The notes under the pieces are model-generated. The model ran no database searches and was not told where the DNA came from. It saw only the letters and a program-made list of their open reading frames with translations. Both the position numbers and the translations under genes were made by a program. Of a stretch of DNA of 10,589 nt, positions 1,109 through 2,047 are shown piece by piece (position 1 is the first letter of the stretch; every line of letters begins with the position of its first letter). Origin of the DNA: a virus (lineage: Duplodnaviria > Heunggongvirae > Uroviricota > Caudoviricetes); the IMG/VR virus record IMGVR_UViG_2609459825_000010; one strand, given 5' to 3'.

Positions 1109-2047
1109 ATGAAGCTCCTTTTTGCTGAACGTCCGCTGGTTATAAACACGCAGCTGGCGATGAAAATTGGTCTGAACGAAGCCATCGTGTTGCAGCAGTT
1201 GCATTACTGGTTGAGAGATACCGGTTCCGGCATGGAATGTGATGGTGTTCGCTGGATTTATAACACAACAGAACAATGGCTGGAGCAGTTCCCGTTCTGG
1301 TCAGAGTCAACGTTAAAACGCGCATTTGCAAGTCTGAAAACGCTGGGGCTTTTGCGTTGCGAAAAGCTCAATAAATCAAAGCGTGATATGACTAATTTTT
1401 ACACGATTAATTACGAGAGCGAGCTTTTAAATGGTGGCAAAGTGAGCGAATCCATCAGGTCAAAATGCGCTGCTCCATCAGGTCAGAATGACACGATGGA
1501 AGGGGCCAAAATGGCACGTTCCATTGGTTCAAAACGACTCAATGTCATCGGGTCAAAATGGCCTGATGATCTTACAGAGAATACAACAGAGATTACTACA
1601 GAGAATAAAAACACTTCTCGTCCGGAAGCTTCGCAACCGGACCCGCAGACGGTTGAACAGGATTTTTTAACCCGACACCCTGACGCGGTTGTGTTCAGTG
1701 CAAAAAAACGCCAGTGGGGCAACCAGGAAGATTTGGCGTGTGCGCAGTGGATCTGGGGACGAATCGTGAGTCTTTACGAGCAGGCCGCCAGCGATGATGG
1801 CGAGATTTCGCGACCGAAAGAACCCAACTGGACCGCATGGGCCAACGACGTGCGCACAATGCGGATGCTGGATGGCAGAACTCACAGACAAATTTGTGAA
1901 ATGTTTGGTCGGGCGCAGCGGGATCCATTCTGGGTAAAAAATATCATGAGTCCGTCAAAGCTTCGCGAAAAATGGGATGAACTGGTTACAGGTTCCTTAA
2001 GCGCAACGGGTTCAAGGTTTGCTTTCATGACCGCTTTGTTGCTGTAA
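1109..2047 (+). CDS. Phage replication initiation protein (lambda O-like replisome organizer)
   Basis: 313-aa ORF. N-terminus MKLLFAERPLVINTQLAMKIGLNEAIVLQQLHYWL is HTH-like. The gene contains an iteron array and AT-rich tract (1451-1612), as ori-lambda sits inside gene O. ATG at 1109 is preferred over the upstream TTG at 1085; a G9 tract (1100-1108) lies immediately 5' of it. Confidence 0.75.
   Translation: MKLLFAERPLVINTQLAMKIGLNEAIVLQQLHYWLRDTGSGMECDGVRWIYNTTEQWLEQFPFWSESTLKRAFASLKTLGLLRCEKLNKSKRDMTNFYTINYESELLNGGKVSESIRSKCAAPSGQNDTMEGAKMARSIGSKRLNVIGSKWPDDLTENTTEITTENKNTSRPEASQPDPQTVEQDFLTRHPDAVVFSAKKRQWGNQEDLACAQWIWGRIVSLYEQAASDDGEISRPKEPNWTAWANDVRTMRMLDGRTHRQICEMFGRAQRDPFWVKNIMSPSKLREKWDELVTGSLSATGSRFAFMTALLL
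1451..1612. repeat. Putative phage origin of replication: five iterons of about 17 bp at roughly 23-bp spacing, followed by an AT-rich tract with three ACAGAGA repeats
   Basis: Iterons: TCCATCAGGTCAAAATG (1451-1467), TCCATCAGGTCAGAATG (1474-1490), GGGGCCAAAATG (about 1502-1513), TGGTTCAAAACG (about 1524-1535), GGGTCAAAATG (1550-1560). AT-rich tract 1565-1612 has ACAGAGA at 1574, 1586 and 1598 (12-bp period). Confidence 0.65.

Follow-up and report, generated by a model that had tools for sequence, protein, structure and literature searches.

An iteron array and a conserved 12-bp repeat inside a lambdoid initiator gene suggest an intragenic replication origin whose plan recurs in phages of many bacterial phyla

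The replication origin of phage lambda is situated centrally within the gene encoding its own initiator, protein O, between the parts specifying the N-terminal DNA-binding domain and the C-terminal recruitment domain. It comprises four 18-bp iterons followed by an AT-rich tract, and six iterons are found in the variants of this origin carried by Stx phages. [quoted passage not shown] A comparable organization has been described for plasmid pSK41, whose Rep protein of 319 aa features a winged-helix N-terminal domain (residues 1–120) binding Rep boxes that are located centrally in the rep gene (PMC5703833; PMC4758243), an origin-encoded and dispensable linker (residues 121–199), and a host-specific C-terminal domain (PMC5703833). 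The origin oriL of phage SPP1 (named in PMC5737612) also resides within the gene of an origin-binding protein, namely gene 38 encoding the replisome organiser G38P. Here, a locus of this kind is described for a 10,589-nt stretch of DNA from a member of the Caudoviricetes (IMG/VR record IMGVR_UViG_2609459825_000010; the whole stretch is referred to as the window). As deduced from sequence comparisons, positions 1453–1609 most probably represent the cis-acting origin of a lambdoid replication module of the mEp460 type, embedded in the gene of its own initiator (1109–2047, plus strand).

The left part of the proposed origin is an array of five abutting 23-bp imperfect palindromes (1453–1568), each composed of two 10-bp arms with the half-site CATCRGGYCA around an AAA or GAA centre. 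The initial annotation of this DNA had placed five iterons with a spacing of about 23 bp in this region, and repeat finders recovered them there, with unit starts at 1451, 1474, 1497 (weaker), 1520, and 1544, corresponding to spacings of 23/23/23/24 bp. The similarity between the repeats, which had been named as a point to be checked, is above chance: allowing up to three mismatches, CCATCRGGTCAAAATG matched four times in the 10.6-kb window, always within the array, compared with 0.14 matches expected from shuffled sequences, and none of 200 shuffles attained four matches. Pooled over the five iterons, 37 out of 50 positions are dyad-symmetric, whereas five centres placed at the same spacing elsewhere in the window, outside the array, yielded 12.3 ± 3.1 positions with a maximum of 24.

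Regarding the individual units, iterons 1 (1453–1475, CATCAGGTCA-AAA-TGCGCTGCTC) and 2 (1476–1498, CATCAGGTCA-GAA-TGACACGATG) are symmetric at six and eight out of ten positions, respectively. Iteron 3 (1499–1521, GAAGGGGCCA-AAA-TGGCACGTTC) is the weakest and most divergent by sequence, yet it retains the dyad form (8/10). Iteron 4 (1522–1544, CATTGGTTCA-AAA-CGACTCAATG; 7/10) is nearly invariant in relatives that are approximately 80% identical overall, as is iteron 5 (1546–1568, CATCGGGTCA-AAA-TGGCCTGATG; 8/10), which adjoins the tract described below. To the left of the array, positions 1430–1452 (AATGGTGGCA-AAG-TGAGCGAATC) may constitute a degenerate sixth iteron. This segment matches the next unit by 78% in the 23-bp register, four of its ten positions are symmetric when read from the sequence, and the same register is occupied by a good unit in a Klebsiella phage (L004).

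Directly 3′ of the iterons, three tandem 12-bp units of the type ACAGAGAnTACn were found on the plus strand (1574–1609), namely ACAGAGAATACA (1574–1585), ACAGAGATTACT (1586–1597), and ACAGAGAATAAA (1598–1609), read in frame as T-E-N-T, T-E-I-T, and T-E-N-K. This tract is presumed to be a DNA-unwinding or loading element. The surrounding 40-mer (1572–1611) has an A+T content of 72% and is the least stable one of the initiator gene (z = +3.0). An AT-rich tract of three units with 12-bp periodicity had been annotated at this place; it is present and easily melted, but it turned out to be a conserved, specific sequence and not merely AT-rich DNA. Since the motif alone is not rare in the window (five matches compared with 1.6 expected), its significance derives from the comparative data. 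Other identities of the 12-mer were considered and rejected: a DnaA box or an IHF site, as no resemblance was recognized by eye (no scan was made); an artefact of stop-codon avoidance, as all three frames are open; and a mobile insertion, as frame and position are conserved and no ends are present. Just 3′ of the 12-mers, a G+C-rich dyad can be read from the sequence (1620–1642; GTCCGG-N11-CCGGAC with the inner palindrome GAAGCTTC); no other stretch in the vicinity is as stable (z about −1.4). Klebsiella-type relatives possess this dyad with better arms of 10 bp (GTCCGGTTGC-N3-GCAACCAGAC). By position, it corresponds to the palindrome located to the right of lambda's AT-rich tract, any function being conjectural.

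All iterons and 12-mers lie within the open reading frame (ORF) 1109–2047, where they occupy codons 115–167 of 312; intact relatives encode 321 aa, and the homologous part of the gene extends over 1109–1988. The encoded protein is predicted to consist of three parts: two folded ones, namely a winged-helix domain at the N-terminus (N-domain) and a domain resembling that of lambda O at the C-terminus (C-domain), are joined by a disordered linker. In the AlphaFold2 model, residues from approximately 10 to 108 adopt a winged-helix topology with a predicted local distance difference test (pLDDT) score of 86–96. Residues 110–183, encoded by the iterons and the 12-mers, are predicted to be disordered (pLDDT < 50), and residues 200–296 are helical (pLDDT 73–90). 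From this model and from profile matches, the N-domain (aa ~1–109; 1109–1435, plus strand) is presumed to be the iteron reader. The location of the repeats between two domains of the initiator, as in ori-lambda, and the repetitive, low-complexity character of the peptide that they encode (TENTTEITTEN; SIGSK/IGSK) agree with what had initially been annotated.

The sequence data support the assignment of ORF 1109–2047 as a phage replication initiator. The protein matched PHROG 391, described as 'replication initiation O-like', with E = 7.5e-89 over residues 19–295 of a 313-residue query translated from position 1106; this family is defined mainly by the C-domain, since a protein with an exchanged N-domain also belongs to it. 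No Pfam (E ≤ 0.01) or NCBIfam family was matched, so that no ready family name is available for the initiator, and its relatives, numbering thousands, are named 'hypothetical protein' by NCBI (those listed being at least 67% identical over the aligned part). The designation of the gene as O-like proved to be appropriate for its C-terminal half only. Residues 147–292 align with residues 135–268 of lambda O (BLASTP; 35% identity, 146 columns, E = 2e-27), and in this alignment the 12-mer tract falls opposite the AT-rich tract of lambda; the C-domain (1676–1988, plus strand) is helical in the AlphaFold2 model and 3′-truncated here. The N-terminal half belongs to another family. It did not match Phage_rep_O (PF04492; E ≤ 0.01), for which lambda O itself achieved 5.7e-36, and hhalign comparison of the N-domain profile with the N-terminal 110 residues of lambda O resulted in a probability of 0.4%, corresponding to unrelated sequences. 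The N-domain profile showed weak matches to winged helix-turn-helix proteins of the GntR/MarR/PadR type, and a search of the PDB with the whole protein sequence yielded noise only. For the modelled N-domain, the best Foldseek match was the weak one to 4pql (E = 0.019, probability 1.00, TM 0.55 on the target), closely followed by MarR/PadR/GntR winged helices. Entry 4pql, which bears the title 'N-terminal domain of DNA binding protein', represents this part of a RepA protein from a staphylococcal plasmid.

Compared with ori-lambda, the locus shares the mid-gene position between a DNA-binding and a recruitment domain, dyad-symmetric iterons with an A-rich centre at similar spacing (20/24/23 in lambda versus 23/23/23/24 in the window), an easily melted tract directly 3′ of the iterons followed by a G+C-rich dyad, and the homologous C-domain. 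The initially annotated ori-lambda architecture is well founded in these respects. However, the N-domain is not of the PF04492 type, the iterons (CATCRGGYCA-AAA) are unrelated to those of lambda (ATCCCTC-AAAA; ATCCCTCAAAACGAGGGA), five or perhaps six abutting 23-bp units replace the four 18-bp units, the tract consists of a tandem conserved 12-mer whereas that of lambda is aperiodic, and no P gene adjoins the initiator gene in intact relatives. Because the iterons differ from those of lambda and the N-domain belongs to a different family, a distinct initiator specificity can be expected, as had been suggested from the iteron sequence.

With RepA_N theta plasmids of Gram-positive bacteria (pSK41 and pLS32 type), the locus has in common the three-part plan with almost the same protein size, central iterons encoding the linker, and a conserved N-domain combined with exchanged C-domains. 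In contrast to these replicons, the window family lacks membership in Pfam RepA_N by sequence, and its module is carried by phages and prophages instead of plasmids. Moreover, pLS32-type replicons were described to be devoid of an AT-rich region (PMC4758243), whereas the window family features the 12-mer tract. Pfam Phage_rep_org_N gave no match in the window initiator or in its family members. The SPP1 protein G38P, which belongs to that Pfam family, hands over to a helicase loader and a helicase; a 12-mer tract is not known from the SPP1 origin. In its kind, the proposed origin is a known one, lambda-like and RepA_N-like, and the window system stands outside the lambda O family with respect to its N-domain and the missing P gene and outside RepA_N with respect to sequence.

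A further group of described elements comprises the 13-mers of oriC, the DnaA-trios, and the 13-mers of plasmids, which are likewise short tandem repeats (12–13 nt, two to six copies) beside the double-stranded binding sites of an initiator and represent the least stable stretch, with a conserved sequence beyond AT-richness. DnaA reads DnaA-trios, and plasmid Rep proteins read the repeats of the DNA-unwinding element. The 12-mer is not known to be related in sequence either to GATCTnTTnTTTT or the trio motif. Unlike the known unwinding repeats, the window element is located inside a coding region and is conserved across phyla and initiator specificities. Plasmid 13-mers are said to be bound in single-stranded form by Rep, which for the 12-mer is a hypothesis.

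Close relatives of the initiator gene, approximately 90% identical, are present in phages mEp460, PhiR42_1, and HannyBb directly after cI-cro-cII. In intact relatives, the gene is followed by a DUF977/Ren-like or PerC-like gene and then by methylase and RusA genes, and no P-, DnaC-, or DnaB-type gene was found near the initiator. The repeats are kept in homologous initiator genes of Escherichia, Klebsiella, and Pantoea phages, their possible absence having been a reservation of the initial annotation. In mEp460_4F5 (80% identical overall), iterons 4–5 and the 12-mers are nearly invariant. Klebsiella phages share the N-domain, the iterons, and the 12-mers with the window, but their C-terminus is another one. 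In Pantoea phage AH07, the same three 12-mers are present, whereas the iterons differ (CGATnAGGGCAAnnTGC...; about five copies of 23 bp). Among 28 relatives, the proportion of differing codons at positions encoding the same amino acid drops from 0.4–0.5 in the domains to 0.06–0.1 over 1523–1612.

The relationship between the 12-mers and the parts of the protein became apparent from a natural exchange of the N-domain. Within the best 80 of 594 viral contigs encoding a relative, the C-domains being 96–100% identical, 59 loci possess the window-type N-domain, iterons, and 12-mers. The remaining 21 loci encode a different N-domain (Pfam HTH_36) in front of a 96–99% identical C-domain and are devoid of 12-mers; in these, homology to the window restarts at approximately 1613, immediately past the 12-mer tract. 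As the 21 swapped loci lack all three features, N-domain, iterons, and 12-mers are inherited and exchanged together as one block that is independent of the C-domain. The dyad at 1620–1642 is kept in the swapped loci, i.e., it travels with the C-domain module. By this comparison, the 12-mers follow neither the C-domain nor its partners nor the host. The HTH_36-type linker carries repeats of its own, consisting of a 41-bp palindrome and two GATCCGTCAG repeats. In the IMG/VR contig L276 (2267–2450) and 20 similar loci, the palindrome is near-perfect (TCAACGGTTAACCCATCAAA / TTTGATGGATCAACCGTTGA) and the two GATCCGTCAG copies are 21 bp apart; presumably, E. coli prophages thus possess another type of origin besides that of the window.

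The distribution of the 12-mer extends far beyond enterobacterial phages. The exact pattern ACAGAGANTACNACAGAGANTAC was detected in at least 120 viral contigs and in at least 120 contigs of a collection with one genome per species, the latter including Pseudomonas, Acinetobacter, Bacillus, Clostridia, Cyanobacteria, Chloroflexi, Desulfuromonas, and Gracilibacteria. It is always located on the coding strand. In 120 out of 125 loci from viral contigs and phage records and in 107 out of 118 genome loci, it is read in the frame ACA-GAG-AnT-ACn, about mid-way in an ORF of 250–450 aa and directly 3′ of a repeat array. The same plan of N-domain, iterons, and ACAGAGAnTACn was found in 74 non-redundant loci from many phyla (N-domains less than 60% identical pairwise), with two to six copies of the 12-mer (mode three) and an upstream repeat period of 21–24 bp in 69 members, 23 bp being the period in 46 of these. 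The window shows all features of this class, namely the N-domain type, a 21–24-bp array, and at least two tandem units on the coding strand. The iteron regions of the 74 members fall into 55 clusters with no detectable mutual similarity, and the GC content of the ORFs ranges between 24% and 63%. A clear dyad was recognized in only 28 of the 74 members, and the spacing between the last dyad and the first 12-mer shows no sharp peak, with values loosely near −15 and −26.

In BLASTP clustering, the N-terminal parts of 179 out of 183 ORFs form a single cluster, whereas the C-terminal parts are distributed over approximately 40 clusters, including the families DnaA_N, DnaT, DnaB_2, Phg_2220_C, and DUF6017. 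In total, the N-domain family comprises 10,242 representatives of 50%-identity clusters (phmmer, E ≤ 1e-3), and members are encoded by Staphylococcus aureus phages 96 and 42E (50% identity), Bacillus phage TP21-L, Lactobacillus phage mv4 featuring four 12-mer units, and Vibrio and Bacteroides phages. Among the 40 plasmid matches listed, most are non-mobilizable and many are about 40 kb in size, consistent with phage-plasmids, and no small plasmid with a window-type initiator as its sole replicon was present. In the searchable literature, the 12-mer motif, the TExT peptide, the link to the N-domain, and the dual coding were not found; an earlier mention in reviews of phage replication modules is possible.

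Several members of this family deserve separate mention. Staphylococcus phage 96 (L340:2330–2420) has iterons of the sequence GGACAAAATGGCC at 23-bp spacing, which are almost those of the window (GGTCAAAATGGCC), the N-domains being 50% identical; for phages of a Firmicute and an enterobacterium, this likeness is unusually close. About one quarter of the best N-domain relatives (P0124, P0126, P0134, P0143, and others) are proteins of 380–880 aa with two tandem N-domains, and nearly all of them are devoid of the T-E-x-T tract, representing a different architecture of the same domain. Contigs of Hyphomicrobiales metagenome-assembled genomes (MAGs; L141, L211, L219, and L171) contain iteron-like repeats (ACCACATAACCTGGTCAnAnnG...) followed by two canonical 12-mers; no long ORF spans these repeats, and no N-domain ORF was found within 2 kb upstream or 1.5 kb downstream. 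In these contigs, the same origin may exist in an intergenic form.

Since the repeats are translated, it has to be considered whether constraint acts on the DNA or on the peptide. The variable position 8 of the 12-mer is a second codon position (encoding N, I, T, or S), and the third codon positions are fixed. A loose scan admitting any Thr codon and either Glu codon, which is 64-fold looser than the exact pattern, yielded 107 canonical loci and 13 others, only two of the latter being iteron-linked (GAA for GAG); ACA and GAG are thus used exactly in 107 out of 109 iteron-linked instances. In 73 extra units, whose sequence the search did not impose, A occupies position 3 in 70 cases, and position 6 is G in 61, T in 11 (Asp), and C in one, the synonymous A never being used. 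By comparison, position 1 of these units is changed to G, C, or T in 20 (Ala, Pro, or Ser). Furthermore, two intact genes with hidden Markov model (HMM) matches to the N-domain read the 12-mers in other frames, as LQRLLQR in Halomonas korlensis and as YRDYHRDY in a Lachnospiraceae MAG. That the frame hardly varies elsewhere is consistent with common descent and with a linker that has to be hydrophilic. The fixed synonymous sites, the two genes with other frames, and the swapped loci without 12-mers argue for a DNA-level element. Both repeat sets are under DNA-level constraint, and the 12-mer is probably an origin element at which unwinding or loading takes place in a sequence-specific manner.

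If ori-lambda and pSK41 or other RepA_N plasmids are taken as models, initiation would proceed in several steps. Dimers of the N-domain would line up on the palindromic iterons and introduce a bend into the DNA, giving rise to an initiator–origin complex. Stress exerted by this complex, together with transcription through the gene, would open the adjacent 12-mer tract as the least stable stretch, and the C-domain would bring in the host helicase machinery. As no P, DnaC, or DnaB gene accompanies the initiator, helicase recruitment would be either direct or mediated by host loaders. We tentatively propose that, during melting, the 12-mer is read sequence-specifically on one single strand by a conserved surface of the N-domain; such reading is favoured because the 12-mer stays constant while the iterons change, and because it follows the N-domain. 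In a wider sense, ACAGAGAnTACn might then be the origin-opening or loading signal that belongs to a single, very large family of phage initiators with a winged helix. A conserved initiator surface would recognize it on DNA that is single-stranded or melting, which would make it a phage counterpart of the DnaA-trio, an idea that we regard as possible and not as the expected outcome.

A rather unlikely alternative, and a less likely one than reading by the N-domain, is that the 12-mer is an origin element read by a conserved host replication protein, i.e., the primase, or the replicative helicase at loading. The occurrence of the motif across phyla and GC contents would suit the target of a universal machine, and the bottom strand of each unit, as read from the sequence, carries 5′-CTG-3′. 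CTG is the preferred start site of E. coli DnaG, a primer from the unit would read AGAGAnUAC, and 12 nt correspond to the footprint of one DnaB hexamer. The C-domains fused to the N-domain include helicase- or primase-related families (DnaA_N, DnaT, DnaB_2), and the Rep protein of pSK41 contacts DnaG (PMC5703833). However, in the same hosts and with a 96–99% identical C-domain, initiators with the other N-domain dispense with the motif, as does lambda, which makes a general host requirement unlikely. In addition, primase start-site preferences differ between Firmicutes and Proteobacteria, whereas the motif is the same in both, which also speaks against a host reader.

An action of the 12-mer at the RNA level, in which the purine-rich transcript (ACAGAGAnUACn) forms a stable R-loop or binds a factor and thereby opens or primes the origin, is considered improbable. 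Such a role would be in line with the invariable location of the motif on the coding, transcribed-sense strand, and purine-rich RNA:DNA hybrids are especially stable. Ori-lambda also reportedly needs nearby transcription ('transcriptional activation'; PMC3017604). On the other hand, R-loops do not require a strict base-by-base sequence, and the orientation is fixed by the gene context anyway.

It is improbable that the array is a binding site with another role instead, either an autoregulatory or copy-control operator or a decoy that titrates the initiators of incoming phages and thus causes exclusion. Iterons of plasmids commonly serve control by handcuffing as well, and the fragment present here would still bind its cognate protein, because it is 100% identical to the copies in intact modules. 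Ectopic copies of ori-lambda reportedly inhibit lambda growth (PMC4488673; PMC3349717). Nevertheless, such functions are compatible with an origin role in intact phages and would be an added role, they leave the adjacent conserved tract of the unwinding type unexplained, and the identity to intact copies may only reflect a recent rearrangement. Finally, the view that the repeats are a by-product of a low-complexity linker, generated by replication slippage and having no cis function, with the origin located elsewhere, is strongly disfavoured and the least probable of all: although the region encodes a predicted disordered, repetitive linker and the frame is the same in the 120 of 125 loci from viral contigs and phage records, synonymous positions are fixed while amino-acid-changing ones vary (position 8, N/I/T/S; position 1, T/A/S/P), with exact ACA and GAG in all but two of the 109 instances linked to iterons, the units are translated in other frames by two genes, synonymous divergence collapses over the array, and selection on the peptide leaves the palindromic iterons unexplained, which are read in three frames because 23 bp is not a multiple of three.

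Several points nevertheless weigh against the interpretation of 1453–1609 as an origin opened at a specifically read 12-mer. No experiment on any member of the window-type initiator family was found in the literature, and the least secure step is the proposed reading of the 12-mer by the N-domain. The A+T content of the 12-mer tract is only 72%, and five less stable 40-mers exist elsewhere in the window. With a Foldseek E-value of 0.019, the structural tie to RepA_N is a weak one, and neither the window protein nor 78 diverse members of its family (E ≤ 0.001) matched the Pfam entry for RepA_N (PF06970). Moreover, the 12-mer is frequent but not universal: of 92 single-domain representatives, which were found by protein search alone, 46 encode at least two strict T-E-x-T units, 62 at least two loose units, and 74 at least one. 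The loci used for the motif statistics were found via the motif or are kin of such loci, their redundancy being reduced but not removed. Likewise, the copy in the window cannot be assumed to be active, as the initiator is cut at 1988, the cII-like gene is cut at 830, and the promoter region is gone.

The state of this copy is that of a relic in a decayed prophage, which has retained intact origin DNA but only a truncated initiator, the promoter region having disappeared. The surviving fragment of the mEp460-type module (830–1988) consists of the 3′ part of a cII/YdaT-like gene and the truncated initiator gene and is bounded by rearrangement breakpoints. Over this span only, it is 100% identical to intact modules on five contigs (L097 and L260–L263), whereas the larger segment 391–4487 is 100% identical to a single contig (L264). 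Residues 1–293 of the initiator are 100% identical to the protein of L097 and diverge thereafter; through the rearrangement, the last 28 codons were lost and 19 foreign codons (1988–2044) were gained, for which the AlphaFold2 model is of low confidence. The right junction is common to one out of 49 relatives, and positions 1–3300 were contiguous in no complete E. coli genome of the collection, indicating a mosaic. The breakpoint at 829/830 truncates the cII/YdaT-like gene, so that the module is devoid of its immunity and promoter region. Just to the left of this breakpoint, a fragment of an IS-type transposase orfA is encoded on the minus strand (310–747; Pfam HTH_Tnp_1, E = 2e-10).

The module that took the place of the initiator gene's 3′ end harbours a hok/sok type I toxin-antitoxin locus (2929–3104, plus strand, with ORFs up to about 3300; Rfam sok, 112 bits), and hokD is annotated for it in E. 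coli genomes. Further downstream, the plus strand carries ordinary genes of the lambdoid nin region, encoding a DUF968 protein with an HNH-like C-terminus (3702–4751) and a RusA resolvase (4761–5138), followed by the Q antiterminator gene (5135–5956). Between Q and three consecutive tRNA genes (7256–7505, plus strand; Met-CAT, Arg-TCG, and Arg-TCT), an AraC-family regulator is encoded (6514–7227, plus strand), which is distantly YdeO/GadX-like (NCBIfam E = 3.9e-31, far below the cut-off) and may be prophage cargo. In Stx phages, a similar tRNA arrangement is located upstream of stx; no toxin gene was found in the window at the tRNA cluster. The right end of the window contains a full-length match to the small RNA family STnc100 (8343–8552, plus strand; 146 bits) and a 610-aa ORF (8734–10566, plus strand), which by its appearance we take to be a prophage NanS-type sialate esterase, although no NCBIfam match was obtained.

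For the window alone, our results place the origin of a common, as yet unnamed replication module of E. coli and Escherichia prophages, the present copy being a dead fragment. Beyond this locus, a 12-base DNA word was recognized within coding sequence whose synonymous sites are kept across phyla and which, next to iterons, nearly always accompanies one N-domain family, representing a clear example of protein and DNA codes that overlap. Thereby, a large family of initiators without annotation is named together with its plan, comprising a specificity domain, an origin-encoding linker, and an exchangeable host adaptor, and the origins of thousands of phages and prophages become locatable by a simple rule at the sequence level. 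For iteron initiators in general, the question is raised whether the unwinding element is read specifically, and by what. If reading by the initiator holds true, ACAGAGAnTACn would have been preserved across Proteobacteria, Firmicutes, Cyanobacteria, and Chloroflexi during a diversification of the iterons that gave rise to dozens of specificities, and it would represent a portable and predictable marker of phage origins.

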